In this document: piece by piece, positions 318-63,669 of the stretch
Layout: every line of letters begins with the position of its first letter
How positions within the stretch are numbered: position 1 is the stretch's first letter
Assembly (NCBI RefSeq): GCF_013315695.1
Contig: NZ_CP054353.1
Reading direction: 5' to 3' (one strand)
From: Escherichia coli
GTDB lineage: Bacteria; Pseudomonadota; Gammaproteobacteria; Enterobacterales; Enterobacteriaceae
DNA length: 64,000 nucleotides
Notes under the pieces: model-generated
The model's input: the letters and a program-made list of their open reading frames with translations, nothing else
Databases searched by the model: none
Told to the model about the DNA's origin: nothing
Position numbers and translations under genes: made by a program

Positions 318-470
318 TGCCTGATGCGCTGGGCAACAAAACCTGTAGAAATTATTGCTTTTGTAGGCCAGATAAGGCGTTTACGCCGCATCCGGCATCT
401 GAGCATGATGCCTGATGCGACGCTGGTCGCGTCTTATCAGGCCTACGACTTTCTCCGCATCCGGCATAAA
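318..470. repeat. REP/BIME cluster (several repetitive extragenic palindromic units)
   Basis: Seen directly: units tgcctgatgcgacgctggtcgcgtcttatcaggcctac and inverted gtaggccagataaggcgtttacgccgcatccggca, matching the E. coli REP consensus. Confidence 0.8.
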
Positions 471-4927: not shown

Positions 4928-4976
4928 TGCACCAATATAGTGCTTCAATGGAAACATTAAGCACCATGTTGGTGCA
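4928..4976. promoter_or_regulatory. NtrC enhancer sites upstream of glnAp2
   Basis: Palindromes tgcaccaatatagtgctt (4928..4945) and gcaccatgttggtgca (4961..4976), both matching the NtrC dyad. Confidence 0.75.
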
Positions 4977-5127
4977 ATGACCTTTGGATAACCCTTTTTA
5001 TGCTCCGTGAAAGCGATCACAAAGGGACTCTGCAATACTTGTTTGCGGAGGATGTTTGTGATCCTGTTTTGTAGTGCGATTAATCCGTGTACAATAACGC
5101 GCTATTTCTAATGCCTGAGGCAAAGTT

Positions 5128-7056: not shown

Positions 7057-7845
7057 TCAGGATACTTCTTGCTCGGCAACCACCAGTTCAACATTCTCTT
7101 CACTTAACAACTGGCAGAAAGAATTGGGAGGCGGGGCATCAGTAAAAAAAGCCCTGACATTCCGTGCATTGCCAATTGAAACGGCAGCAGACGCGGCAAA
7201 CTTCGTATGATCGGCCACTAACAATGTATTCCGCGCATGTTTAATCATCGTTCTCGCGACTAACGCTTCATTTACATCAAATTCCAGTAGGGTGCCGTCA
7301 TGTTCAATGGCACCTATACTGGTGATTAAATAATCTGCGCGGAAGCCTTCAATAAAATCCACGGCTCCTGGGCCGATAATCCCGCCGTTATGAGCGCGTA
7401 AAGTGCCTCCCGGCACCATCACTTCAATATCCTGATTCTTATAAAGAATCTGTGCCACACGTAGGCTGTTAGTGATAATGCGTAAATCACGCCGGTTGAG
7501 TAATGCCCTGGCAACGGCTTCTACGGTTGTACCGATGGTGATAAAGACGGTACAGCGTTCGGGAAGGTAATCGGCGACTGCCTCAGCGATCGCCCGTTTC
7601 TCGGCGGTGAGCGAAAGTTCCCGTTGCTCAAAAGCGGTATTCATGACGCTGGAGACGCGCCCGGCCCCTCCATGATGACGGGTGATCAAGCCCTGCTCAC
7701 TGAGTTTTCGGATATCCCGGCGCACGGTTTGCGTTGAAACATCCAGCAGTTGTGCCAGTTCTTCAATATTCATATAACCGCGTTCTGCGATTAGATGAAC
7801 GAGTTGGTCATGGCGTGGATTACCTGTCACTTCGATGATACTCAT
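7057..7845 (-). CDS. DeoR-family transcriptional regulator (YihW/CsqR-like)
   Basis: 262-aa ORF; N-terminal HTH IEELAQLLDVSTQTVRRDIRKL; C-terminal DeoR sugar-phosphate-binding-type domain. Confidence 0.8.
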   Translation of the reverse strand: MSIIEVTGNPRHDQLVHLIAERGYMNIEELAQLLDVSTQTVRRDIRKLSEQGLITRHHGGAGRVSSVMNTAFEQRELSLTAEKRAIAEAVADYLPERCTVFITIGTTVEAVARALLNRRDLRIITNSLRVAQILYKNQDIEVMVPGGTLRAHNGGIIGPGAVDFIEGFRADYLITSIGAIEHDGTLLEFDVNEALVARTMIKHARNTLLVADHTKFAASAAVSIGNARNVRAFFTDAPPPNSFCQLLSEENVELVVAEQEVS

Positions 7846-7884
7846 GAATACTCCCTTGCCCCTCCTCGGTAGATGTTTACCATT

Positions 7885-8781
7885 TTACGCATAAAGTGAC
7901 AAAAATGATTCGGTTTGCTCACGATTAGGAATGCCGGCCCGACCGCCAGGCTGGGTACATTTCATCGCGGCAACCGCACTGGCAAAACGAATAGCCTCTT
8001 TTGTTGGCATTTTTTCTGCCAACGCTACCGCGAGTGCGCCGTGAAAAACATCGCCTGCTCCAGTGGTATCAACCACATTGACAGAAAATGCCTCCTGTTG
8101 ACACAAATGACCATCTTCAATCCACAACGATCCTTCAGAACCCAGCGTAACATACACTTTACCTGCTGTTTGTGTCGTTGCCTGGAACAAACCTTCTTCA
8201 GGTGACTGCAGGCCAGTCATGCGTTTCAGCCCTGGTGTTGAGAACACGGCGTGATCGGCAAGCGCGACAAGTGGAGAAATATCCTGCGGTGTCATATCGG
8301 CGTCTAAAAGCGTTGTCACACCCGCAAGGCGCGCTAGCGAGAATGCTTTTTCAGTACCGCTATGCCAGCGAACATCGGCCAGAATCAGATCATAACGAGA
8401 GAAATCGATCGCTTCTAACCATTCGGCATCAGTACCGAGATCAGGACTTGGATAATTAACGATAATCCGTTCGCCATGCTGATCAACGAGGATCGCTGAT
8501 TGCGACGAACGGGCGTTAGGATATCGGCGGCAAAATGCGGTATTGACGCCCCAACCCTCAAGTTCTGCAAGTAAGGTATTTCCACAACTGTCATCGCCGA
8601 CGCGACCGATGAAATCAACCTCCACGCCAAGCTTTGCGATTGCAACAGCGGCTGTTGCTGCCGGGCCGCCACCAATCTCAAGATAATGATTTGCCTGATA
8701 TTTCCCGCCGCCCTCCGGCAGAGTGGGCAAAGAATAAATTCTGTCCTGAACTGTGATACCCACGTATGCAATTCTGGTCAT
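7885..8781 (-). CDS. PfkB-family sugar kinase (YihV-like)
   Basis: Seen: GG dipeptide ...[13 protein letters not shown] and C-terminal [12 protein letters not shown]fkB signature; ATG at 8781 preferred over track TTG start at 8820. Confidence 0.8.
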
Positions 8782-8953
8782 ATTTGTCTTGTCCTGTTTA
8801 ATTTTGTCGTCTTTGGTCAATTTAAATGACGCAAATGATCAAATTAGTGATGCGTGTCGTGTTTTTGAACATAAATTACAAATATGCTCAAAAACAGACG
8901 AAAACGAATTTTCAATTGTCATTATTTTGTCAATGTCAGACAGGAGAGTATTC

Positions 8954-9832
8954 ATGGCAACCATTGCATTTCTCGGGCTGGGGCAGATGGGTAGCCCAAT
9001 GGCTAACAATCTATTGCAAAAAGGGCATTCATTGCAGGTATTTGATGTCAATGCACAGGCCGTCGATGCGCTAGTTACGCAGGGGGCCACTGCGGCACAA
9101 ACCCCAGCGGAAGCAGCAGCAGGCGCTGAATTTATCATCACTATGCTTCCCAATGGTGACATTGTTCGACAGGTTCTGTTGGGGGAAAAAGGCGTCTGTG
9201 AGGCTGTTTCATCTGACGCGTTATTGATTGATATGTCGACTATTCATCCCTTACAGACCGATGCATTAATACGGGAGTTACAAGAAAAAGGCATCAGTAT
9301 GATGGACGCTCCCGTGGGCAGAACGTCCGTGAATGCGATTGATGGCACATTGCTGATTTTAGCGGGTGGCACTGATGAGCAGATTGCACGTGCACGCCCG
9401 ATTCTCATGTGCATGGGTAATGAGCTGGTCGAGGCTGGCGGCCCAGGAATGGGGATCCGCGTGAAGCTAATTAACAACTATATGAGCATTGCGCTTAATG
9501 CGCTGTCCTCCGAGGCCGCTGTGTTATGTGAGTCACTGGGATTAAATCTTGATGTCGCAATTAAGGTGATGAGTGGTACGGCAGCAGGGAAAGGACATTT
9601 TACGACCACCTGGCCTGGCAAAGTGCTGAAAGGCGATCTTTCACCCGCCTTCATGGTGGATCTGGCGTTGAAAGATCTGCGTATTGCAGTTGACGTCGCT
9701 CGGGAGACGGGGGCACCGCTCAATATGGGGATTGCAGCAGAAAGTTATTACGCTGCAGCAAGTCAAGACGGCAAAGGGCGGCAGGACTGGAGTGCCCTGC
9801 TAAATCAGGTTCGCCAGCAGGCTGGTCTTTAA
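8954..9832 (+). CDS. NAD(P)-dependent beta-hydroxyacid dehydrogenase (YihU-like, 3-hydroxyisobutyrate dehydrogenase family)
   Basis: Start ATG at 8954 preceded by aggaga RBS; Rossmann motif [14 protein letters not shown]; track ORF begins earlier at a non-ATG codon. Confidence 0.8.
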
Positions 9833-9856
9833 TTTTATCTATTAACAGGAGTTTCT

Positions 9857-10744
9857 ATGTCATCCCACTTCACCCCATTTACGCTGAAAGATATCTCCCG
9901 CCCAGGTGGTGGATTTGCCATGTTAGCTGTCGATCAGCGTGAGGCCATGCGCTTGATGTTTGCGGCAGCAGGGCAGCCAAAACCCATCGCCGACAGTGTA
10001 CTCACCGATTTTAAAGTTGCCGCGACCCGAATCCTTTCTCCTTATGCTTCTGCCGTTCTGGCGGATAAACAATTTTGTCTTGAGCAAATAGTCGAGCAGG
10101 GCGCTGTTGCTAATTCTTGCGGCCTGATTGTCGCTGCCGATCTTTTTATCCCAGGTAATGGCATCCCGGTTGATAGCGTTGAAATAGATATGTCCGTCGA
10201 CCCGCATAAAGCCCGTGAAATGGGGGCTAAGGCAATGAAATTACTTGTACTCTGGCGTGAAGATGAACCCGCAGAGGAACGTCTGGCAATGGTTGATAAA
10301 TTTGTTCGTCGCTGCCGTAGTGCCGGGCTGGTGAGCATTATTGAACCTGTGGTGCGTCCACCTCGTCGCGGTTGGGACTTTGATCGTGAAAGCGCCATTG
10401 TTGCCGCCGCCGCAGAGCTTGGTGGAACAGAGGCTGATCTTTACAAAGCCGAGATGCCATTAGGGGGCAAAGGCGATGAAAAAACCTTACTTGCCGCCTG
10501 TCAGCAACTTAACGATCAGATGAAGATGCCGTGGGTAATTCTTTCTTCTGGCGTTGATGCCGATATTTTTGGCCGTGCAGTAAGTATTGCCATGAAAGGT
10601 GGTGCGTCGGGCTTCCTGGCTGGACGAGCGGTTTGGGCGTCGGTTGTTGGTGCACAAGATCCACAAACTATGCTGCGCGATGTCTCTGTTCCTCGTTTAC
10701 AACGGTTGGCAGAAATTGTCGATGAAGGTATCGCGCAACGCTAA
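9857..10744 (+). CDS. class I aldolase, YihT/LacD-like (sugar-phosphate aldolase)
   Basis: 295-aa ORF with RBS aggag; resembles the YihT sulfofructose-phosphate aldolase / tagatose-bisphosphate aldolase family from memory. Confidence 0.7.
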
Positions 10745-10776
10745 TCCCCTATGGATATCGATTCTGGAGAATAACA

Positions 10777-11787
10777 ATGGATAAAATTACCCAGGTTTTA
10801 TTTTCAGATATTGGGAAAGTCACCACTCAATATGTTGAAGTACCACACCAGGAACTTAAACCGCACGAAGTGCGGATTGCGCCTGTGTTCTATGGGATAT
10901 GCGGTTCGGATCTGCATGTTCTGAAAGGCGGTCATCCGTTTGCCAAACCACCTGTCGTCCCCGGTCATGAAATTGCAGCGCGCGTTACGGAAGTTGGCAG
11001 CGACGTTAAAAATGTACAGCCGGGCGATCATGTTGTGGTCGATCCCATCATGGCTTGCATGGAATGCCGAGCCTGCAAAGCAGGACGTTTTAATCTTTGT
11101 GAACCACCGCAGGTTGCTGGTTTTCGCGCACCGGGCTTTGCTCGCTCACAACACATTGTTCCTGCGCGTAATTGCCATGTCGCACCAGCCTCTTTACCGC
11201 TAAAAGTGTTGGCCTTTGCCGAACCGGCGGCTTGTGCCCGTCACTGCGTTAACCGAATGCCGAAAGCTTCTCTGGAAAGCATACTGGTAATTGGTGCCGG
11301 AACGATAGGCTTATCCATCGTGCAGGCACTGCGCATTATGGGGGCAGGTAAGATTACCGTGATTGAACCTGACGCTGCCAAACGCGCGCTGGCGTTAAAG
11401 CTGGGCGCAGCAGAAGTTTGGGCACCAGGTGAGCTGGCCGCAGATGTGCGATTTACGGGGGCGATTGATGTCGTTGCAGCGCAGGCCACGCTTAACGATG
11501 CATGTACCCGTGTATATGCCGGAGGCACCGTCGTGTGCATGGGCGTACCAAGTGGGCCGCGTGAAATACCATTACCGATGATGCAACGTTTCGAGCGTGA
11601 CTTGCTCAACTCTGGCATGTACATCCCTGAAGATTTCGATGCTGTTATCGAATGGCTGGCGGATGGGCGGTTTGATACCAGTGAACTGGTTACCGATTTA
11701 TTTGCCATTGAGGATGCAGCGGCGGCATTTGAACGCGCGCAGCAAAATGACTCCATAAAGGTCATGCTGCAATTTGTGCCGGAATGA
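10777..11787 (+). CDS. zinc-dependent alcohol/polyol dehydrogenase (MDR superfamily)
   Basis: GICGSDLHV and PGHEIAARV zinc/catalytic motifs; second Cys cluster CMECRACKAGRFNLC (structural Zn); GAGTIG NAD-binding motif. Confidence 0.8.
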   Translation: MDKITQVLFSDIGKVTTQYVEVPHQELKPHEVRIAPVFYGICGSDLHVLKGGHPFAKPPVVPGHEIAARVTEVGSDVKNVQPGDHVVVDPIMACMECRACKAGRFNLCEPPQVAGFRAPGFARSQHIVPARNCHVAPASLPLKVLAFAEPAACARHCVNRMPKASLESILVIGAGTIGLSIVQALRIMGAGKITVIEPDAAKRALALKLGAAEVWAPGELAADVRFTGAIDVVAAQATLNDACTRVYAGGTVVCMGVPSGPREIPLPMMQRFERDLLNSGMYIPEDFDAVIEWLADGRFDTSELVTDLFAIEDAAAAFERAQQNDSIKVMLQFVPE

Positions 11788-11856
11788 TTTTCTAAATCTC
11801 TGTCTGGCGCTGCGTCACGTCAGCGCCACCCTACAACAATTAAAAAGGACACTGCG

Positions 11857-13290
11857 ATGAGTCAAATCACCAGTCCTGCAACTTATTCAATTAGTCGGCC
11901 ACAGGACGTAATTGATATTGTTAATAAGAACTCTGCAATCAACACCAGTATCGGCGTTATTTTTATTGCTTTGGGCGGCATATTGATTGATGCCTACCAG
12001 GCGGCGATGGTGGGGTTTGGTAATAAATACATTGCCGCTCAATTCGGCATTTCGCCGGGTCTTGCTGCAACCGTCAATGCATCAGTATTAATCGCCGCGT
12101 TAATTGGCGGTTTATTAGCGAACCGAGTAATAAACCGCTTTGGGCAAAAGCGGGCATTTATTATTGGCATGGGGCTGTGCACCATCGGTGCTGCAGCGGT
12201 AGCTATTGCTCCCAGTATCTGGTGGGTGCTGGTGTGCCGCGTCATCATGGGCTTTGGTTTAGGCATCGACTTCCCTTTGGCAACCAATGCCGTGGCAGAG
12301 CTTCGTGGTTCAACGTCGAAGAAAACCGGAACGTCGGTCAACCTCTGGCAAATGGCCTGGTATGTTTCGACAACCGTTGTTTATTTGGTACTTTTGCCGC
12401 TGCTTCTGTCGGGTATCGCTGAAGAACAATTGTGGCGTTACGGAATATTCATCGGAGCTATTTTTGCAGTCATCTTCATGATTTTGCGTTACTTCTTTAT
12501 TGGTGAATCCGCAATGTGGGCCGCACGCGTCGGGCGTTACCAGGAAGCGTGCGACATTCTGGGAAAACGTTATGGTGTTCAGGCTCGCGTTGCGGCATCG
12601 GGTACAACAGAAGCGAAATTCTCGGAAAAAGCAGAGAATAAATACAGTGGTGGATATGGCATCTTATTTAATGATCGTTACCGCAAACGCACCATTCTTG
12701 GCTGTGTCGTGGCAACCATGCAGGCGTGGCAATATAACGCCGTAGGTGTTTATCTTCCTCTTACGTTGGCGGGAATAATAAGTGGCGGGCTTACTGGCGC
12801 GTTGACCGGTTCTGCCGTCGTGAATGCCCTTTGTGGGGTGACAGGCGGGATGATCGGCTCGTTTATTCTCCAACGACTGGGTACTCGCCGACAGTCGATG
12901 TATGGATTTGCTGTTGTGACCTTAGCATTGCTGTCGTTAGGCGCACTGGCAACGACTAATCCCTGGCTGTCTTTAGGATTATTGGGATCAATTATTTTCT
13001 TCCATTCAGCGGGTCCTGGTGGGCTGGGCATGACCATTGCCACACTCTCTTATCCTCCCGCTATTCGCCCTACTGGGGTCGGATTTGCCCGCGCTATTAT
13101 GCGCACAGGGGCAATTGCAGGACTCATTTTCTGGCCGATGCTGTGGGGTGCGTTGAAAACTGAAGCGTTTTACTGGTTGGCAATCGTGCCATTCCTGGGG
13201 TTCCTGACCTGCGTATTGATTAATTGGGAACCACTGGGTGCAAATGTTGATGCTGAGGATGCAGAGGTTCTGGCTGAATTGAAGAAATAA
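11857..13290 (+). CDS. MFS-type transporter (sugar porter-like)
   Basis: 477-aa highly hydrophobic ORF with about 12 predicted TM segments; MFS-like GxLaNRxGQKR loop. Confidence 0.7.
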   Translation: MSQITSPATYSISRPQDVIDIVNKNSAINTSIGVIFIALGGILIDAYQAAMVGFGNKYIAAQFGISPGLAATVNASVLIAALIGGLLANRVINRFGQKRAFIIGMGLCTIGAAAVAIAPSIWWVLVCRVIMGFGLGIDFPLATNAVAELRGSTSKKTGTSVNLWQMAWYVSTTVVYLVLLPLLLSGIAEEQLWRYGIFIGAIFAVIFMILRYFFIGESAMWAARVGRYQEACDILGKRYGVQARVAASGTTEAKFSEKAENKYSGGYGILFNDRYRKRTILGCVVATMQAWQYNAVGVYLPLTLAGIISGGLTGALTGSAVVNALCGVTGGMIGSFILQRLGTRRQSMYGFAVVTLALLSLGALATTNPWLSLGLLGSIIFFHSAGPGGLGMTIATLSYPPAIRPTGVGFARAIMRTGAIAGLIFWPMLWGALKTEAFYWLAIVPFLGFLTCVLINWEPLGANVDAEDAEVLAELKK

Positions 13291-13327
13291 ATTAATGCGC
13301 ATCGGCTTAAACCGATGCGCATTAATT
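13290..13327. repeat. perfect 16-bp-arm palindrome between the two transporter genes
   Basis: aattaatgcgcatcgg-cttaaa-ccgatgcgcattaatt; no following T-run. Confidence 0.6.
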
Positions 13328-13388
13328 CAAACTGCCCACGTTTAGTGGTTCGTATCCCAGATTTCTCGCCTACCAGGAGAGGAAAATT

Positions 13389-14738
13389 ATGTCTGAAAAG
13401 TTACCCGCACCGCGTGAAGGGCTTTCCGGTAAAGCCATGAGACGTGTCGTTATGGGCAGTTTCGCAGGCGCGTTAATGGAATGGTATGACTTCTTTATTT
13501 TTGGCACGGCAGCAGGACTGGTATTTGCACCGCTGTTTTATCCAGACAGCGATCCTTTTATAGGTCTTATAGCCGCCTTTGCGACCTTTGGTGTCGGTTT
13601 TCTGACTCGTCCTTTAGGTGGCATCGTCTTTGGTCATTTTGGCGATAAAATCGGGCGAAAAATAACACTTATCTGGACGCTGGCTATTGTCGGTTGCTCC
13701 ACATTTTTGATTGGTTTTATTCCGACGTATCAGGAAATTGGCATTTGGGCACCGCTTGTATTAATGGTGCTGCGTTTGATTCAGGGCTTTGGTCTTGGTG
13801 GCGAGTACGGCGGAGCGGCATTGATGACCATAGAATCAGCGCCCGAATCCCGACGCGGATTTTTAGGTTCACTCCCGCAAACGGCTGCGTCAGTGGGTAT
13901 TATGCTGGCAACCGGTATTTTTGCTCTCTGTAACCATTTTCTTACTTCGGAGCAGTTTCTCTCCTGGGGATGGCGCATTCCGTTTTGGCTTTCTGCGGTG
14001 ATGTTGATCGTTGGGCTGTTTATCCGCCTGCATACCGAAGAAACACTGGATTTTCAAAAGCAAAAAACGACGAATAATAAAGAAAAGTCCGTTCCTCCGT
14101 TGATTGAATTATTCAAAAAACATCCACGAAATATTTTATTGGCACTGGGTGCGAGGCTGGCGGAAAGTGTCTCCTCTAATATTATTAACGCCTTTGGTAT
14201 TGTCTATATTTCCAGCCAATTAGCATTGTCGCGAGATATTCCCCTGACGGGTATGTTGATTGCCTCGGCGATCGGTATTTTCAGTTGTCCATTGGTTGGA
14301 TGGTTATCAGATCGTATAGGTCAAAAAAGTCTGTATTTGTCGGGAGCAGGATTTTGTGTCCTGTTCGCGTTTCCTTTCTTCTTATTACTGGATAGCAAAA
14401 GTACGCTCATCATCTGGTGCAGTATGATCCTCGGCTACAACTTAGGTCCGACGATGATGTTTGCCGTGCAGCCAACACTTTTCACCCGCATGTTCGGTAC
14501 CAAAGTACGATATACCGGCCTTTCTTTTGCTTATCAATTTTCCGCGATTCTTGGCGGACTAAGCCCCCTTATCGCCTCAAGTTTGCTGGCGCTAGGGGGA
14601 GGAAAACCGTGGTATGTCGCTCTGTTTTTATTTGCTGTCTCAGTTCTTTCCTTTGTTTGCGTCTGGCTGATTGAGCCGACCGATGAACAAGAAACCGCTT
14701 CTTACCGCTACATCAGGGAACAATCTCATGAAAACTGA
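13389..14738 (+). CDS. MFS transporter, metabolite:H+ symporter (MHS)-like
   Basis: 449-aa ORF; N-terminal MEWYDFFIFGTAAG and GHFGDKIGRK motifs typical of the ProP/KgtP/ShiA family. Confidence 0.7.
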   Translation: MSEKLPAPREGLSGKAMRRVVMGSFAGALMEWYDFFIFGTAAGLVFAPLFYPDSDPFIGLIAAFATFGVGFLTRPLGGIVFGHFGDKIGRKITLIWTLAIVGCSTFLIGFIPTYQEIGIWAPLVLMVLRLIQGFGLGGEYGGAALMTIESAPESRRGFLGSLPQTAASVGIMLATGIFALCNHFLTSEQFLSWGWRIPFWLSAVMLIVGLFIRLHTEETLDFQKQKTTNNKEKSVPPLIELFKKHPRNILLALGARLAESVSSNIINAFGIVYISSQLALSRDIPLTGMLIASAIGIFSCPLVGWLSDRIGQKSLYLSGAGFCVLFAFPFFLLLDSKSTLIIWCSMILGYNLGPTMMFAVQPTLFTRMFGTKVRYTGLSFAYQFSAILGGLSPLIASSLLALGGGKPWYVALFLFAVSVLSFVCVWLIEPTDEQETASYRYIREQSHEN

Positions 14739-15615
14739 ACGAAAAAACGAGCATTACCTGGCGCTACAACAGGCGTTTGACGCGCCATGGCCTGGGCCTG
14801 TAGGAGAGTTAGTGACGCTGGAAAAAGGCAATATTCACCTGCAGATTTATCCGCATGATGGTGCCAGGATAACCTCGTTAAAGGCATTTGGTTCTGAAGT
14901 ATTACGCCAATGGCAGCCGCAGCGCAGAGCTTTTCAGTATGGCTGTTTCCCAATGGTGCCGTGGGCAGGGCGACTGGGGAATGCGACGCTGAATGCTGGT
15001 GGGCAATGTTATTCTTTACCCGCCAATAAACCACCACATGCGTTGCATGGTATGGCTTGTTACTCAACGTGGGAAATCATCGACAAAACAGCAGATTCCC
15101 TGACTTTACGTATGCCCCTGGCTTCACCGTGGCCCTGGCAAGGGGAAGTGATTCAGACTTTTTTGCTGGAGAACGATGCGCTGGTTTTGCAACTGGAAGT
15201 CCATTCATATGCCGATACATTCCCGGCCTCCGCAGGCTGGCATCCGTGGTTTGCGAAAAAGCTGACTCCGCAAAATACAGAATCGTTGCAGGTGCTTTTT
15301 GATGCGGACTGGCAAGAAGAAGCGGGTAGTGATGAACTGCCAACTGGAAATCGTATCTCTCCTCAAGCCGGTCCCTGGGATGACTGTTTTGGTTTTTATA
15401 ACGGGGTGAAGGTTAAGTTACTGTGGCCTGGTAAACTCGCGATGACCATGATCTCTTCTGCAAACAGTCTGGTGGTATTTGATAAACAGCCCGATGCCAC
15501 CTGTATTAACCCGCTGACTCAGGCACCTAACGCAATAAATCTAACGCCGGAATTGGTGACACCAGATAGGCCGCTGGTCATCGAAACTCGTTGGCAATTT
15601 ACACCTGAATCTTAA
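14728..15615 (+). CDS. aldose 1-epimerase family protein (YihR-like mutarotase)
   Basis: ATG at 14728 overlaps the preceding stop (ATGAAAACTGA); HPYFNL-like region and conserved His/Glu pattern of the galactose-mutarotase fold. Confidence 0.65.
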   Translation: MKTERKNEHYLALQQAFDAPWPGPVGELVTLEKGNIHLQIYPHDGARITSLKAFGSEVLRQWQPQRRAFQYGCFPMVPWAGRLGNATLNAGGQCYSLPANKPPHALHGMACYSTWEIIDKTADSLTLRMPLASPWPWQGEVIQTFLLENDALVLQLEVHSYADTFPASAGWHPWFAKKLTPQNTESLQVLFDADWQEEAGSDELPTGNRISPQAGPWDDCFGFYNGVKVKLLWPGKLAMTMISSANSLVVFDKQPDATCINPLTQAPNAINLTPELVTPDRPLVIETRWQFTPES

Positions 15616-19056: not shown

Positions 19057-20871
19057 ATGGTTGCCAATATTAATCTCATTAAACAAGAAAGTTATTCTAT
19101 TGTTAATTTAGAAAAACAACTAATGAGTAATGAATCACCGAAGCAAACGCTATTAAATGATTTTTCACATCGCCTTAAAATGGAAGGTGAGGAGCAACTG
19201 TGCGATTGTGTTAACGAACTTAAACTCGGGTTGTCGAGTAATAATAAATATGACCTGTTTAAAAATAAAGAAACCTCACTGTGGAAACGCAAAGTACCAG
19301 AAAGTGCAGCGCTGGCAATGACGGGAACAGTATATAAATTATTTGGTAGTCGCTTACTCAACGTCCGCAATCAGTTAGATAAAAATCTCCTCGAAATGGC
19401 TATGCAAATGGTTTATGGCAAAGATATGGTGACAAAGTCCGGGGATATATTGATTGATATACAATTAAACAAGGATGGCAGCCTCCAGAGTAAGCACTAC
19501 ACATTTGATGTAGGTGAAGTTATAAACAGTTATAATATTGACCTCTTTGTGAATGCTTCGAGTATTAATCAAACTTACTTACATGATAAAAATCCTGGTG
19601 ACGTTATTAGCCTGTATGACACTTTAGATAACATTCCTCTTGTAGTTAAGGAATGCACGGGTAAAAATCATCAAATTAACGTTAAAGCCAAATTGCCTCA
19701 AGAACGAAGTGAAAAAGTTGAGGATATGTGTGAAAGAATGAGAGGTGGCATCTCTATGTTTAATCACACTACAAAAACAGCTGGTAATATAGAGCATAAT
19801 TTGCAGCTAAGTTTTCTCGTGGATTCACGACCGTCGATCACAAATAAATACTCAGTCAAAGATGTAGGTCCAGATATACTTGCATTACCCGTCAACGTAT
19901 ATCATGCAGATTTTAAAATTAAAATCAATAATGCAGTAGAGAAGGCTTCGTCAATTGTGTTATGTGCTGTGCAAAAAAATCTCCATGCAGCAAGAAAGGT
20001 TCTTGGCGGGATAATAGGAAATGTGCCAAAAAATAATAAACCAAAAACAATCATTTTTGATTTACGTTTTCTTAGTGCAATTAAGCAGAAAGTTTTTTTG
20101 GGCAGTGAAAAACCGTTGTTTGTAAAGCATACCGCAATGATGAGGGAGGCATGTGAGGAATTACCGCAGTCAGTGGAATATGTTCCTTTAGCCTGTGAAG
20201 CGCATAGCCATCGCAGCGTCGCCCTTGCCAAAACCGTGGCTGCGCCCATCATGGCGACAGGTGTGGGCTCGGCTTTAATGTATGCAACATCATCAGGACC
20301 GTATTATGCACAAAGTCTTTCTGGTTCGCCGGATATCGAGATGATAAAAAATCGCATGGCTCAATTGTTTACCCAATTGGATGCTTCTGTGCGCAACAAA
20401 TATCGCCCGGCTTTTGATAAATGGAATGAGCTGGTAGATAAATTAAATCACGAAAGAAATACAGTTCCGTTTGCGTGTTTGACCACCATTTTAGCGACGG
20501 CGATAAATGAAACTCCTGAGGGGGATACGAATGTTGCCGTTGTGATGGGGTGTAAATCTGCGAAAGATCGCACGATATCCATTGTCCTTGGCAACTCGAT
20601 GTTGCAAACACTCTTTGAAAAACGCCTCGCTGATGATGGAGAAATAGAAAATCTTGTTGATCAACAGGGATATTTTAACTGCGATTCATTAACAGCCGAA
20701 GAATTAATGATATTAAAAGACCTTTTTGATATTCGAGTTCTTCATGTCTCTAACAAATTCAATGTTGGGTTTCAAGGTAATATCAACACTGATGTTTTAC
20801 AAGATTCGTTTTTTAAAAATGTCGATTTCATTCATGAATCTAGCTCGTATACCGTAGGGATGGGAGTCTGA
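19057..20871 (+). CDS. putative phosphoinositide phosphatase, SopB/IpgD-like (candidate type III effector); accessory gene
   Basis: ORF 19018..20871; ATG at 19057 preceded by strong RBS gggaaggagg; product contains CKSAKDRT (CX5R P-loop as in inositol polyphosphate 4-phosphatases and SopB/IpgD); gene and flanks visibly AT-rich; absent from K-12 yiiD-yiiE interval as remembered. Confidence 0.6.
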   Translation: MVANINLIKQESYSIVNLEKQLMSNESPKQTLLNDFSHRLKMEGEEQLCDCVNELKLGLSSNNKYDLFKNKETSLWKRKVPESAALAMTGTVYKLFGSRLLNVRNQLDKNLLEMAMQMVYGKDMVTKSGDILIDIQLNKDGSLQSKHYTFDVGEVINSYNIDLFVNASSINQTYLHDKNPGDVISLYDTLDNIPLVVKECTGKNHQINVKAKLPQERSEKVEDMCERMRGGISMFNHTTKTAGNIEHNLQLSFLVDSRPSITNKYSVKDVGPDILALPVNVYHADFKIKINNAVEKASSIVLCAVQKNLHAARKVLGGIIGNVPKNNKPKTIIFDLRFLSAIKQKVFLGSEKPLFVKHTAMMREACEELPQSVEYVPLACEAHSHRSVALAKTVAAPIMATGVGSALMYATSSGPYYAQSLSGSPDIEMIKNRMAQLFTQLDASVRNKYRPAFDKWNELVDKLNHERNTVPFACLTTILATAINETPEGDTNVAVVMGCKSAKDRTISIVLGNSMLQTLFEKRLADDGEIENLVDQQGYFNCDSLTAEELMILKDLFDIRVLHVSNKFNVGFQGNINTDVLQDSFFKNVDFIHESSSYTVGMGV

Positions 20872-35574: not shown

Positions 35575-36969
35575 ATGAAAAAATCGACATTATCTTTAGC
35601 CATCGGTTTATTATTGGCATGTAGTACCGGAATGGCAAAAACACAGCATTTAACGCTGGAACAACGCATGGCATTGCTGGAAGAACGCCTGGAAGCGGCA
35701 GAAATGCGGGCAGCAAAAGCAGAGAGCCAGGTTAAACAGCTGCAGACACAACAAGCCGCTGAGATCCGCGAAATTAAGGCTGCCCAGGGCAATACGCCGG
35801 TAAATGGACAGGCAACGGCGGAATCTGCAAAGAAAAATTCCACCTCACCTAATCTTTTGCTCTCAGGTTATGGCGATTTAAAAATCTACGGCGACGTAGA
35901 ATTTAATATGGATGCGGAAAGTAATCATGGCCTGCTGGCAATGACCAACGCTGATGTGAATAGCGATCCCACTAATGAACAGTGGAATCTCAATGGTCGT
36001 ATTTTGTTAGGTTTTGATGGTATGCGAAAACTGGATAATGGCTATTTCGCCGGGTTCTCCGCACAACCGCTGGGGGATATGCACGGTTCAGTAAATATCG
36101 ATGATGCGGTTTTCTTCTTTGGCAAAGAAAACGACTGGAAGGTCAAAGTAGGCCGTTTTGAAGCCTACGATATGTTCCCGCTGAATCAGGATACCTTTGT
36201 TGAACATTCCGGTAATACTGCGAACGATCTTTATGACGATGGCAGCGGTTATATCTATATGATGAAAGAGGGCCGCGGGCGCTCTAACGCTGGCGGTAAT
36301 TTCCTCGTCAGCAAACAACTTGATAACTGGTATTTTGAATTAAACACGTTACTTGAAGACGGAACATCTTTATATAATGACGGTAATTATCATGGACGCG
36401 ATATGGAGCAGCAGAAAAATGTTGCTTATCTGCGTCCGGTAATTGCCTGGTCGCCGACAGAAGAATTCACCGTTTCCGCAGCGATGGAAGCGAACGTGGT
36501 AAATAATGCTTATGGTTATACCGATAGCAAGGGTAATTTTGTCGATCAGTCCGATCGTACCGGCTATGGTATGAGCATGACCTGGAATGGCCTGAAAACG
36601 GATCCGGAAAATGGCGTCGTGGTTAATCTTAATACCGCCTATTTAGATGCTAATAATGAGAAAGATTTCACTGCCGGGATTAACGCGCTGTGGAAACGTT
36701 TCGAGCTGGGTTATATCTACGCGCACAATAAGATTGATGAATTCAGCGGTGTAGTTTGTGATAACGACTGCTGGATTGATGATGAAGGGACGTACACCAT
36801 TCACACCATTCATGCGTCTTATCAGTTCGCTAATGTGATGGATATGGAGAACTTTAATATTTACCTCGGGACGTATTACTCCATTCTGGATAGCGACGGT
36901 GATAAAAAACACGGTGATGATACTGATGACCGTTACGGCGCACGCGTTCGCTTTAAATACTTCTTCTGA
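35575..36969 (+). CDS. putative outer-membrane carbohydrate porin with N-terminal coiled coil (accessory gene)
   Basis: Signal peptide MKKSTLSLAIGLLLACSTGMA; heptad-like LEQRMALLEERLEAAEMRAAKAESQVKQLQTQQ; alternating beta-strand-like body; C-terminal ...RFKYFF aromatic terminus; AT-rich; no gene here in K-12 as remembered. Confidence 0.65.
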   Translation: MKKSTLSLAIGLLLACSTGMAKTQHLTLEQRMALLEERLEAAEMRAAKAESQVKQLQTQQAAEIREIKAAQGNTPVNGQATAESAKKNSTSPNLLLSGYGDLKIYGDVEFNMDAESNHGLLAMTNADVNSDPTNEQWNLNGRILLGFDGMRKLDNGYFAGFSAQPLGDMHGSVNIDDAVFFFGKENDWKVKVGRFEAYDMFPLNQDTFVEHSGNTANDLYDDGSGYIYMMKEGRGRSNAGGNFLVSKQLDNWYFELNTLLEDGTSLYNDGNYHGRDMEQQKNVAYLRPVIAWSPTEEFTVSAAMEANVVNNAYGYTDSKGNFVDQSDRTGYGMSMTWNGLKTDPENGVVVNLNTAYLDANNEKDFTAGINALWKRFELGYIYAHNKIDEFSGVVCDNDCWIDDEGTYTIHTIHASYQFANVMDMENFNIYLGTYYSILDSDGDKKHGDDTDDRYGARVRFKYFF

Positions 36970-44327: not shown

Positions 44328-44948
44328 ATGAGCTATACCCTGCCATCCCTGCCGTATGCTTACGATGCCCTGGAACCGCACTTCGATAAGCAGACCATGG
44401 AAATCCACCACACCAAACACCATCAGACCTACGTCAACAACGCCAACGCGGCGCTGGAAAGCCTGCCAGAATTCGCTAACCTGCCGGTTGAAGAGCTGAT
44501 CACCAAACTGGACCAGCTGCCAGCAGACAAGAAAACCGTACTGCGCAACAACGCTGGCGGTCACGCTAACCACAGCCTGTTCTGGAAAGGTCTGAAAAAA
44601 GGCACCACCCTGCAGGGTGACCTGAAAGCGGCTATCGAACGTGACTTCGGCTCCGTTGATAACTTCAAAGCAGAATTTGAGAAAGCGGCAGCTTCCCGCT
44701 TTGGTTCCGGCTGGGCATGGCTGGTGCTGAAAGGCGATAAACTGGCGGTGGTTTCTACTGCTAACCAGGACTCCCCGCTGATGGGTGAAGCTATTTCTGG
44801 CGCTTCCGGCTTCCCGATTGTGGGCCTGGATGTGTGGGAACATGCTTACTACCTGAAATTCCAGAACCGCCGTCCGGACTACATCAAAGAGTTCTGGAAC
44901 GTGGTGAACTGGGACGAAGCAGCGGCACGTTTCGCGGCGAAAAAATAA
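44328..44948 (+). CDS. sodA: manganese superoxide dismutase
   Basis: [20 protein letters not shown]...; metal ligands His27, His82 and the DVWEHAYY motif. Confidence 0.97.
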
Positions 44949-45005
44949 TCATTTGCCGCCTGCTGCAATGAGGCGTTTACGTCGCATATCAGCTTAAAAA
45001 ATGAA

Positions 45006-45036
45006 CCATCGCCAACGGCGGTGGTTTTTTTGTGAT
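45006..45036 (+). terminator. Rho-independent terminator of sodA
   Basis: ccatcgcc-aacg-gcggtgg hairpin followed by ttttttt. Confidence 0.75.
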
Positions 45037-45068
45037 CAATTTCAAAATAAAAACAATGATCCGATAAA

Positions 45069-45088
45069 AATAAAACAGTGTTTCAATT
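45069..45088. promoter_or_regulatory. KdgR-operator-like palindrome upstream of kdgT
   Basis: aataaaacagtgtttcaatt matches the KdgR consensus AATRAAAYRNYRTTTYATT at 18 of 19 positions. Confidence 0.6.
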
Positions 45089-45207
45089 GATGTGGTTTTG
45101 ATCACTTTTATTGATCAAATGAATGTCTATCTTCGTTTCCATCAACACTGATGCTCCGTTGAGGAATGACGCATCAGCCCTTAAAAATATGCCGACAGGT
45201 GATGGAA

Positions 45208-46109
45208 ATGCAGATAAAACGCTCGATTGAGAAAATCCCGGGGGGGATGATGCTCGTCCCGCTATTCCTTGGCGCACTGTGCCACACCTTCTCGCCGGAG
45301 GCGGGGAAATATTTTGGATCATTCACCAACGGGATGATTACCGGTACGGTGCCCATTCTGGCGGTGTGGTTTTTTTGCATGGGGGCGTCAATAAAATTAA
45401 GCGCGACGGGAACGGTATTGCGTAAATCCGGTACGCTGGTGGTAACAAAAATTGCCGTCGCGTGGGTGGTTGCGGCAATTGCCTCGCGCATTATTCCGGA
45501 ACATGGTGTTGAAGTTGGATTCTTTGCCGGACTTTCAACGCTGGCGCATTTGTGTTGATGTCATTGGAGTCCGGGCCGCTCATGACGATGATTATTCTGG
45601 GCACTGCCGGGATTGCCTCGTTTGAACCGCATGTTTTCGTCGGCGCAGTATTACCGTTCCTGGTGGGCTTTGCCCTTGGGAACCTTGACCCTGAATTACG
45701 AGAATTTTTCAGCAAAGCGGTGCAGACGCTGATTCCATTCTTTGCCTTCGCGCTGGGCAATACCATTGATTTGACTGTAATTGCCCAGACAGGTTTGCTG
45801 GGGATCCTGTTGGGTGTGGCAGTAATTATCGTGACCGGTATTCCGTTGATTATCGCCGATAAATTGATTGGCGGTGGCGATGGCACTGCCGGAATTGCCG
45901 CTTCCAGTTCCGCAGGGGCCGCGGTAGCGACACCTGTGCTGATTGCAGAAATGGTGCCTGCGTTTAAACCGATGGCTCCGGCAGCAACTTCGCTGGTCGC
46001 GACGGCGGTCATTGTGACTTCGATTCTGGTGCCAATTCTTACCTCTATCTGGTCACGTAAAGTCAAAGCCAGAGCGGCGAAAATCGAAATTTTAGGTACG
46101 GTGAAATAA
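45208..46109 (+). pseudogene. kdgT: 2-keto-3-deoxygluconate permease, disrupted (frameshift with apparent internal deletion)
   Basis: N-terminal part ([13 protein letters not shown]...GLSTLA) stops at TGA 45556..45558; C-terminal part (..[14 protein letters not shown]...KIEILGTVK) continues in another frame from about 45552; about 30 codons appear missing versus the 327-aa protein as remembered. Confidence 0.6.
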
Positions 46110-46257
46110 ACCTGCTTCCTTAATCCCCACAGCCGGATGAACTAACGTTCGTCCGGTTTGCTATTGAGCTCCTGCCTGGATACATACCGCGAAAACAGCA
46201 CGCCTGACATAAAATAAATATGGTCTAATGGGGAAATTTCTCGTGGAGAGGGAACAG

Positions 46258-46932
46258 ATGCGATATCCGGTTGATGTATACACAGGCAAGATTCAGGCTT
46301 ATCCCGAAGGCAAACCCAGCGCAATTGCCAAAATCCAGGTTGATGGTGAGTTGATGCTGACGGAGCTGGGGCTGGAAGGTGACGAGCAGGCGGAGAAAAT
46401 GGTTCACGGCGGGCCAGACAGAGCGCTGTGTCATTATCCTCGTGAGCACTATCTCTACTGGGCGCGGGAATTTCCGGAACAGGCGGAGTTGTTTGTTGCG
46501 CCTGCGTTTGGTGAAAATCTCTCAACCGACGGTCTGACGGAAAGTAATGTTTATATGGGCGATATTTTCCGCTGGGGAGAGGCATTAATTCAGGTCAGCC
46601 AGCCGCGCTCGCCTTGCTATAAACTCAATTACCATTTTGATATCAGCGACATAGCGCAGTTGATGCAAAACACGGGTAAAGTGGGGTGGTTGTATAGCGT
46701 AATTGCACCAGGGTTGGTATCTGCTGATGCGCCACTGGAGTTGGTTTCCCGTGTCAGTGATGTGACCGTGCAGGAGGCTGCCGCCATCGCATGGCATATG
46801 CCGTTTGATGACGATCAGTATCACCGTTTACTCTCCGCCGCCGGGTTATCGAAAAGCTGGACGCGGACGATGCAAAAGCGCCGACTGAGCGGCAAGATCG
46901 AAGATTTTTCCCGCCGGTTGTGGGGAAAATAA
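46258..46932 (+). CDS. yiiM: MOSC-domain protein YiiM
   Basis: Start MRYPVDVYTGKIQAY; 224 aa; conserved Cys in SQPRSPCYKLN. Confidence 0.9.
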   Translation: MRYPVDVYTGKIQAYPEGKPSAIAKIQVDGELMLTELGLEGDEQAEKMVHGGPDRALCHYPREHYLYWAREFPEQAELFVAPAFGENLSTDGLTESNVYMGDIFRWGEALIQVSQPRSPCYKLNYHFDISDIAQLMQNTGKVGWLYSVIAPGLVSADAPLELVSRVSDVTVQEAAAIAWHMPFDDDQYHRLLSAAGLSKSWTRTMQKRRLSGKIEDFSRRLWGK

Positions 46933-46940
46933 CCCCCGGA

Positions 46941-47030
46941 GTGTAGGCCTGATAAGACGCTATCGGCGTCGCATCAGGCATCCTGCTCAAATGCCGGATG
47001 CGGCGTAAACGCCTTATCCTGCCTACAATG
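46941..47030. repeat. REP/BIME element
   Basis: gtaggcctgataagacgctatcggcgtcgcatcaggc ... gccggatgcggcgtaaacgccttatcc. Confidence 0.8.
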
Positions 47031-52004: not shown

Positions 52005-52105
52005 TGCCTGATGCGCTTCGCTTATCAGGCCTACATGAATTCTGCAATTTATTGAATTTGCAAACTTTTGTAGGCCGGATAAGGCGTTCGCGCCGCATCC
52101 GGCAT
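52005..52105. repeat. REP/BIME element
   Basis: tgcctgatgcgcttcgcttatcaggcctac ... gtaggccggataaggcgttcgcgccgcatccggca. Confidence 0.8.
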
Positions 52106-62208: not shown

Positions 62209-62235
62209 GAGGCGCCGCAAGGCGCCTTATTTTTT
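62209..62235 (+). terminator. Rho-independent terminator of zapB
   Basis: ggcgcc-gcaa-ggcgcc hairpin followed by ttatttttt. Confidence 0.75.
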
Positions 62236-62950
62236 ACTTCACTGCATTTTTAGCGGAAAGCATAATCTCCATCGCCTGTTGGCGATATTTATCTGCCGTA
62301 TCTGGCGCCATTAATGCAATGATCCCCACAGCCCTGGGGGTGTCTTCAAGATAAACACTGATGGTTCTTTTCTGCTGACCATCAAAATTTATCAACACAT
62401 CCTGATACTTACAGGTGAAATGTTTGGCATTACAATCATGAAACTGGAAGGCTTCCTCATTGTATTGATCCTTGAGATTGTCTCGCTGCTTCTTCTTTAA
62501 CGCTTCCAGCGGGTCATCGGCGCTACGTCCTGCGGGCAGACGGAAAGCAGAAATGAAGACGCTATTATCCTCACTTCTTATATCAATGGTTTTATTAGTA
62601 CTAATGGAAACCGTATTCCAGTGTCGGTTCGGGATAGTCACGGTTATCGCAGCATTCTCAAAGGTATATTGCCACGGGGTAAACATACGAAACGTATTGC
62701 CGACTTTGGATAAAAGCAGGATTCCCAATACCCAACAGCACCCGCGAGTAAAACTGGCGAAGTTACGTGTTTTTTTAATAAATGCGCACAGAATACCTGA
62801 CACAAGCACGGGAAGTAACAACGGCCCCAGAAATACTGAACCGATATACTCGCCAACCATGCCAGGATCTCCAGACAGTAGGTTGCTGTGCTGAAGATGA
62901 CTAAGAAAAGTAGTTATTATCCATAGTATTAATAAGATAACGTATCTCAT
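62234..62950 (-). CDS. hypothetical membrane protein (3 predicted N-terminal TM helices plus C-terminal domain), paralog A; accessory
   Basis: 238-aa ORF with RBS aaggga; hydrophobic segments near 3-19, 35-58, 70-83; shares W.YTF..ITVT.P and H.C....F.C.YQ motifs with the upstream ORF; AT-rich. Confidence 0.6.
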   Translation of the reverse strand: MRYVILLILWIITTFLSHLQHSNLLSGDPGMVGEYIGSVFLGPLLLPVLVSGILCAFIKKTRNFASFTRGCCWVLGILLLSKVGNTFRMFTPWQYTFENAAITVTIPNRHWNTVSISTNKTIDIRSEDNSVFISAFRLPAGRSADDPLEALKKKQRDNLKDQYNEEAFQFHDCNAKHFTCKYQDVLINFDGQQKRTISVYLEDTPRAVGIIALMAPDTADKYRQQAMEIMLSAKNAVK

Positions 62951-62982
62951 ATCAATCCCTTATTATTAACATACACATCAGA

Positions 62983-63669
62983 TTATTGATGGGCAGAAAG
63001 TATCATTTTCATTACTTCTTCTTGATATTCGTCCAAATAATCTGGGTCGATAGCTGCGACCAGTCGTATCAAATTAGTGTTATCCAGTAGAGTCATGAAA
63101 ATAGCATGTCTTATTTTGCCATCACTCATTGTTTGAATTCCTTCCTGATAAGCGCAGGCAAATCCCTTAACATCACAAACATGCATTTCTGCAGTTCCGT
63201 TTTGAGTCGCGGTAAGTTCCTCGATTGAATGCACACCGAGTTCATTTTGTGAGAAGGCAACAATAACTAAAATAGCATGGGCATCCCGAGTCACCAGGAT
63301 TGGTCCTTGTTTTACTATATTGGCAACCCACTGTTTGCTCGGAACTGTGACGGTGATACCTGGCCCCGGGAAAGTATAATCCCATGTGCTGTGTCGTTCC
63401 CACACTGTATAGCTGCTATAGATAAGAAATAATCCCATTAACCAACAAGTGCCGCGAATAAAGCTGTGGCTGCTTCTTTTTTTTATCGTTATACAGATGA
63501 TTGTGGCGATAATAAATGATAAGGCAAGTGGGTTAAAAAATACGTTAGCAAAATATAAAATCATTTCACCCGTGTTGCCAGACAAAAGGAATTTGTAGCG
63601 GAAATGGTTAACGACTATAAGTAATAAATATATAAATAAAAGAATAATATTCTGCATGAATACGTCCAT
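62983..63669 (-). CDS. hypothetical membrane protein, paralog B of the preceding ORF; accessory
   Basis: 228-aa ORF with the same architecture and motifs as paralog A (HVCDVKGFACAYQ vs HDCNAKHFTCKYQ); start may be the ATG at 63657; AT-rich. Confidence 0.55.
   Translation of the reverse strand: MDVFMQNIILLFIYLLLIVVNHFRYKFLLSGNTGEMILYFANVFFNPLALSFIIATIICITIKKRSSHSFIRGTCWLMGLFLIYSSYTVWERHSTWDYTFPGPGITVTVPSKQWVANIVKQGPILVTRDAHAILVIVAFSQNELGVHSIEELTATQNGTAEMHVCDVKGFACAYQEGIQTMSDGKIRHAIFMTLLDNTNLIRLVAAIDPDYLDEYQEEVMKMILSAHQ

Follow-up and report, generated by a model that had tools for sequence, protein, structure and literature searches.

The closest described counterpart of the locus analysed here is kdgT of Escherichia coli K-12 (b3909), which encodes a 2-dehydro-3-deoxy-D-gluconate:H+ symporter (PF03812, TC 2.A.10) and is located between sodA and yiiM. 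KdgR represses both kdgT and kdgK (PMC6892915, PMC4784465); kdgT mRNA is higher in a K-12 kdgR mutant, and a PlaR/KdgR box, ATnTGAAACnnnGTTCAnTT, has been given in the same publication (PMC6958661). Derepression of kdgT has also been described elsewhere (PMC6892915). The lesion reported below belongs to a second well-described class, namely, deletions between short direct repeats (microhomology deletions) in bacterial pseudogenes, which are bounded by a short imperfect repeat and leave behind one hybrid copy of it. A literature search returned no paper on this particular kdgT allele. Judging from titles and abstracts, none of the publications retrieved for kdgT pseudogenes in E. coli seemed to deal with such a pseudogene, and the sole match for the strain concerned, MSB1_4I, was an unrelated Salmonella paper.

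We analysed a stretch of E. coli DNA of 64,000 nucleotides, hereafter the window. The genome sequence NZ_LR898874.1 (E. coli MSB1_4I; rectal swab, Australia) is 100% identical to the window over one 25-kb piece around kdgT, and positions in the two are related by NZ_LR898874.1 position = 5086997 - w, where w is the window position. The RefSeq record of the pseudogene, 5040888..5041789 of NZ_LR898874.1, corresponds exactly to the coordinates that the initial annotation had assigned to the split gene in the window (Table 1). As in K-12, the gene lies between sodA and yiiM, within the conserved run rhaT-sodA-kdgT-yiiM-cpxA, so that kdgT occupies the orthologous position (sodA-kdgT-yiiM-cpxA). Outside the lesion the two loci encode the same protein, with Gly at residue 31 in K-12 KdgT and Glu in the lineage of the window. 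However, compared with K-12 kdgT, the window allele lacks 82 bp (codons 114-140 plus 1 nt) and its frame is broken. In the nearest relative, the intact allele gives a PF03812 match spanning residues 3-312 (E = 3.8e-115), and matches to the same family had also been precomputed for the two fragments of the deleted allele, but the window does not contain a continuous open reading frame of ~327 aa with all the hydrophobic segments. Judging from this comparison, the locus is an orthologue of K-12 kdgT (b3909) with a predicted loss-of-function deletion, that is, a pseudogene of the KdgT family (PF03812).

Table 1. Features of the kdgT locus (window coordinates) and related genes of the source genome (NZ_LR898874.1 coordinates)
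Feature	Coordinates	Strand	Description
Terminator-like hairpin and T-run, 3' of sodA	45003..45027	+	11-pair stem, then TTTTGTG; upstream limit of the kdgT control region
KdgR-box-like palindrome AATAAAACAGTGTTTCAATT	45069..45088	.	Core TAAAACAGTGTTTCA (TAAAAC-AGT-GTTTCA) at 45071-45085; box left unchanged by the lesion
Whole kdgT pseudogene	45208..46109	+	RefSeq JMX41_RS25030, pseudogene flag, note 'frameshifted'
N-terminal kdgT fragment	45208..45558	+	Native codons 1-113, three out-of-frame codons His-Leu-Cys, TGA; 116 aa; PF03812 match
Deletion junction repeat	45540..45547	.	GCTGGCGC, remaining copy of an imperfect direct repeat (7 of 8 bases match)
C-terminal kdgT remnant	45546..46109	+	Native codons 141-327 and stop (46107-46109), frame offset by two bases; ends ...GTVK
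kdgK	235972..236901 of NZ_LR898874.1		Annotated intact, located via synteny
eda/kdgA	2970861..2971502 of NZ_LR898874.1		Annotated intact, located via synteny
kdgR	2901320..2902111 of NZ_LR898874.1		Annotated intact, located via synteny

To define the lesion, the 201-base window segment 45440-45640 was aligned with the intact kdgT genes of E. coli MS 21-1 and IAI39. The alignment contained a single gap of exactly 82 bp and otherwise no difference, placing the deletion junction between positions 45545 and 45546. The missing sequence, GCTGGTGGCGGCGATGG...GAAGAAGCTGGG, encodes residues 114-140 (27 residues) plus 1 nt and can be written as c.339_420del or, equivalently, up to c.341_422del. Because division of 82 by 3 leaves a remainder of 1, the deletion changes the reading frame. 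The frame that opens with the ATG at 45208 (MQIK...) ends at the TGA at 45556-45558, precisely where the initial annotation had placed the stop, and the rest of the protein is encoded in another frame, as it had proposed: the position of about 45552 given there for the onset of this second part proved to be the earliest possible start codon in that frame (GTG), the frame itself being read over 45546-46109. The same annotation had put the loss at roughly 90 bp and 30 residues and had considered it not to be a multiple of three; the out-of-frame character of the deletion was borne out, and both sizes came near the actual values. The possibility, also raised there, that alignment with an intact kdgT would rejoin the two frames into an intact protein did not materialise.

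The age of the deletion can be gauged from intact relatives. E. coli AF3 (NZ_OZ547117.1; UK, blood culture) and MS 21-1 (NZ_CP146670.1; USA, colon) show ~100% identity to the window over 25 kb, and 1 and 2-3 SNPs, respectively, separate them from it in the 7.2 kb surrounding kdgT. Despite these virtually identical flanks, both carry the full-length 984-bp kdgT encoding the protein WP_001166043.1, whereas the window allele is deleted; the same 82-bp gap separates the window from AF3, MS 21-1 and IAI39. From the near-identity of the flanks, we infer a single deletion event within one clonal complex, which probably took place after the split from the AF3 and MS 21-1 lines. MSB1_4I would thus belong to a small clonal E. 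coli lineage whose ancestor lost the 82-bp segment in a single event. Overall, we put at roughly 0.93 the probability that the lesion is a genuine, heritable loss-of-function allele produced by one 82-bp deletion in a small clonal lineage, likely through repeat misalignment. The lesion had already been flagged in public annotation and the type of event is textbook; in this sense the case is ordinary, and the finding is of little importance beyond bookkeeping.

Many further truncated KdgT products exist in E. coli and Shigella flexneri. The clusters obtained by protein look-up comprise contig-end partials, apparent insertion junctions and a separate frameshift. The apparent insertion junctions ...AAMDMT/CPLIHI and ...LVVT/RLCPLII follow codons ~81 and 121, and the protein P0009 results from a different frameshift, close to codon 126, and terminates at the same TGA. 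The independent-lesion proteins that were read are P0009, P0012, P0022 and P0025, and the 82-bp junction is shared by none of these other lesions. In the pseudogene alleles of E. coli and S. flexneri, the same non-essential transporter gene is thus inactivated, but the lesions are different. Judging from these sequences, kdgT has been lost on several independent occasions. The idea that the deletion site is a mutational hot spot was considered and rejected, the other KdgT fragments of similar length being contig-end partials, apparent insertion junctions or a different frameshift, so that the 82-bp site is not a hot spot.

The many independent kdgT lesions on record in E. coli and S. flexneri would be compatible with a real deletion having been fixed by selection, the loss of 2-keto-3-deoxygluconate (KDG) uptake or of an expressed membrane protein being advantageous in human-associated E. 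coli and Shigella, as would the persistence of the 82-bp allele, whose carriers have had time to diverge and occur in many samples. We consider such selection unlikely, given that 80% or more of the kdgT locus is found in one place in at least 5,412 of the 5,426 complete E. coli genomes, that the closest relatives are intact and that MSB1_4I has several other pseudogenes and IS disruptions, which constitute an ordinary background of gene decay. The more general proposition, that adaptive loss has repeatedly affected kdgT in human-associated E. coli and Shigella and that the 82-bp allele, as one successful instance, marks a globally dispersed clone, is quite doubtful; if it were true, KDG uptake or KdgT expression would be costly in the human host. 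We thus favour a nearly neutral loss of kdgT in a small clonal lineage.

With respect to the origin of the deletion, the intact gene contains the 8-mers GCTGGCGC and GCTGGGGC, which lie in register 82 bp apart and match at 7 of their 8 bases. The break points in the intact gene are TTCAACGCTGGC/GCTGGTGG and GAAGAAGCTGGG/GCATTTGT, and the break can slide 2 bp rightward (GC). A 7/8 match this near the break occurs in 0.085% of random position pairs 82 bp apart in the window (p ~0.00085). Misalignment between GCTGGCGC and GCTGGGGC, for example during replication slippage, would result in the loss of 82 bp. Slippage or another microhomology-mediated route is most likely the mechanism, although the sequence alone cannot separate these routes. 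Compared with the deletions between short direct repeats in other bacterial pseudogenes, the kdgT case is in no way unusual: the repeat is imperfect (7/8), and the perfect overlap at the switch point amounts to only 2 bp.

The deleted segment also starts exactly with a Chi octamer, GCTGGTGG (L002:3547-3554 in the intact allele; it would fall at window position 45546), and a second Chi, located 111 bp upstream, is retained at 45435-45442. This arrangement could indicate that Chi/RecBCD-linked repair of a break, rather than replication slippage, made the deletion. However, Chi is frequent, with 13 copies in the 64-kb window (11 on the + strand and 2 on the - strand), and one event cannot discriminate between mechanisms. 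Moreover, the first five bases of Chi, GCTGG, are part of the flanking repeat, so that, in our view, the coincidence stems from the repeat and is not a clue, and involvement of RecBCD is rather improbable. Misalignment of the imperfect repeat thus remains the favoured origin of the 82-bp deletion.

The lesion lies entirely within the coding sequence, and the KdgR-box-like palindrome upstream, which the initial annotation had described as intact, is indeed present and unchanged with respect to close relatives carrying the intact gene. The palindrome is of the AAAC-N3-GTTT type, resembles the PlaR/KdgR box of PMC6958661 and can be considered a putative KdgR operator. Its core is the sole match to TRAAACNNNGTTTYA in the 64 kb, where 0.01 would be expected, for a pattern that was written post hoc after the site had been seen. 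The window shares an identical 262-bp upstream region with one of the carriers of the deletion described below (L004) and with MS 21-1, which has the intact gene. In IAI39, also with an intact gene, this region contains two differences, both outside the box, and in K-12 it contains 8 substitutions, one of which is in the box, at the central spacer base 45079. The same position is the sole SNP between the window and AF3 in the 7.2 kb, with T in the window, MS 21-1 and IAI39 and C in AF3 and K-12. The operator is unchanged only because the lesion is recent, the flanks having accumulated only 1-3 SNPs in 7.2 kb relative to the intact relatives, which leaves no time for decay. Furthermore, KdgR is still encoded and has other targets, so that retention of the putative operator carries no further biological meaning. 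A scan of 44900-46300 for sigma-70 promoters yielded no consensus-like site.

To assess the consequences for the protein, we performed a hydropathy scan, according to which the deleted residues 114-140 correspond to the second half of the fourth hydrophobic segment, at 100-120, and to the polar stretch preceding the segment at 150-166. A sequence search for solved structures related to KdgT gave no match at E values up to 1, and the deleted region is therefore placed by hydropathy alone. Members of the KdgT family (TC 2.A.10) are described as 10-segment transporters with a 5+5 repeat that belong to the BART superfamily, which would place the lesion at the end of the first repeat. When initiated at the native start, translation would yield the 116-aa stub, the last 187 codons remaining untranslated from that start, and the truncation suggests a loss of KDG transport. 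The cells would be unable to take up exogenous KDG but would still metabolise KDG made internally. Given that kdgK, eda and kdgR are annotated as intact (Table 1), the predicted phenotype is narrow, only the uptake of external KDG being lost. In wild-type K-12, kdgT is reported to be repressed, with growth on KDG depending on a mutation in kdgR; if this is the case, the loss of kdgT would be nearly neutral in the laboratory sense.

A functional product from the window locus is very unlikely. The gene might in principle still work if the 116-aa fragment and a restart product of 175-185 aa formed a split transporter, or if ribosomal frameshifting generated a fusion lacking 27 residues, and PF03812 similarity is indeed retained in both fragments. 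The sole restart candidate with a Shine-Dalgarno-like GGAG is the ATG at 45582, from which a 175-aa product matching PF03812 has been called by gene callers elsewhere. However, the GGAG lies 12 nt upstream, a poor spacing, and the 13-nt overlap of the two kdgT frames contains no slippery heptamer of the X XXY YYZ type, that is, no recoding signal that would restore the frame. Moreover, either product would lack residues 114-140, including half a hydrophobic segment, and the allele arose recently from an intact gene and does not represent a conserved arrangement. With no slippery site and only a weak restart candidate, both a programmed frameshift and a split functional gene were rejected, and we regard continued function as highly improbable; the locus is more readily explained as a loss-of-function allele.

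To determine the distribution of the allele, we used a 40-mer centred on the junction, for which a megablast seed is possible only where the junction exists. The 40-mer was found in 1 of 5,426 complete E. coli genomes, namely, MSB1_4I (NZ_LR898874.1), the genome of the window itself. Taken alone, this result would still be compatible with an assembly error, the second of the two explanations between which the initial annotation had left the choice open. However, an exact look-up in a collection of 15 billion proteins retrieved the 116-aa product (...STLAHLC) from 237 contigs originating from NCBI, JGI, ENA and Logan, and the product has been deposited for the named isolates E. coli UMEA 3304-1 and UMEA 3190-1. 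Furthermore, we obtained the DNA sequences of three carrier loci, L004, L005 and L006, from the ENA metagenome assemblies ERZ28564775 and ERZ28567695 and the NCBI draft GCA_903973095.1 (L005). In all three, the identical junction 40-mer is present and the 82-bp segment is absent, and each locus shows 2-3 SNPs relative to the window within the aligned 10.6-12.4 kb, so that these are distinct genomes. The occurrence of the same junction in independent assemblies of other samples and strains decides between the two explanations: the junction represents a heritable lineage allele and not an assembly error.

Thus, although the only complete RefSeq genome with the junction is that of the window itself, there is next to no chance that the lesion was created by errors in the sequencing or assembly of MSB1_4I and that kdgT is really intact, since the identical junction recurs in three assemblies from other samples and pipelines, each with SNPs of its own and one with a different neighbouring prophage, the exact truncated protein has been deposited for named isolates of another project, and the loss of 82 bp within unique coding sequence is atypical of homopolymer or polishing errors. 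Accordingly, the 'frameshifted' flag of kdgT in RefSeq reflects a true mutation, and one clonal lineage can conveniently be recognised by the junction sequence GCCGGACTTTCAACGCTGGCGCATTTGTGTTGATGTCATT. In L005 (L005:10619-12351 of GCA_903973095.1), a phage integrase gene, an HTH gene and a Cox-like gene follow cpxP directly, at the place occupied by fieF in the window and in the remaining carriers, which suggests a prophage insertion distinguishing sub-lineages.

Several observations were made in other parts of the source genome. Within NZ_LR898874.1 180000-229999, bisC is frameshifted, an ABC ATPase gene beside xylF is split by IS1, and bcsE and the adjacent BcsR/BcsP gene are truncated by IS1; kdgT is thus one pseudogene among several in MSB1_4I. 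The same region contains a five-copy array of Ldr toxin genes.

In the window, a yih (sulfoquinovose-type) cluster lies between yihX and typA (7057-15615) and encodes an aldose 1-epimerase, two MFS transporters, a zinc-dependent alcohol dehydrogenase, an aldolase, YihU, a sugar kinase and a DeoR regulator, with neither yihQ nor yihS annotated. This gene content differs from what we take to be the K-12 arrangement. A transposase gene and an adjoining truncated hypothetical gene ('missing C-terminus') are located between yiiE and fabY (19057-20871), and a second gene for a CopG-family regulator (22003-22245) adjoins yiiE. A 'carbohydrate porin' gene (35575-36969) lies between rhaM and frvA, and two genes for hypothetical proteins (62234-63657) lie between rraA and zapB. 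Rfam matches include two naRNA4 elements, at 366-443 (+) and 46946-47023 (-), the second of which is situated between yiiM and cpxA, a short distance downstream of the kdgT pseudogene, as well as ES222 (4939-5046), the SECIS of a formate dehydrogenase gene (27457-27515, -) and ES036 (52027-52068, -). Finally, genes in the 2.22-2.99 Mb region of NZ_LR898874.1 run in the K-12 direction, whereas those of the window and of the 0.18-0.24 Mb region run in the opposite direction, an orientation that implies that a large segment, placed roughly symmetrically around the terminus, is inverted with respect to K-12.
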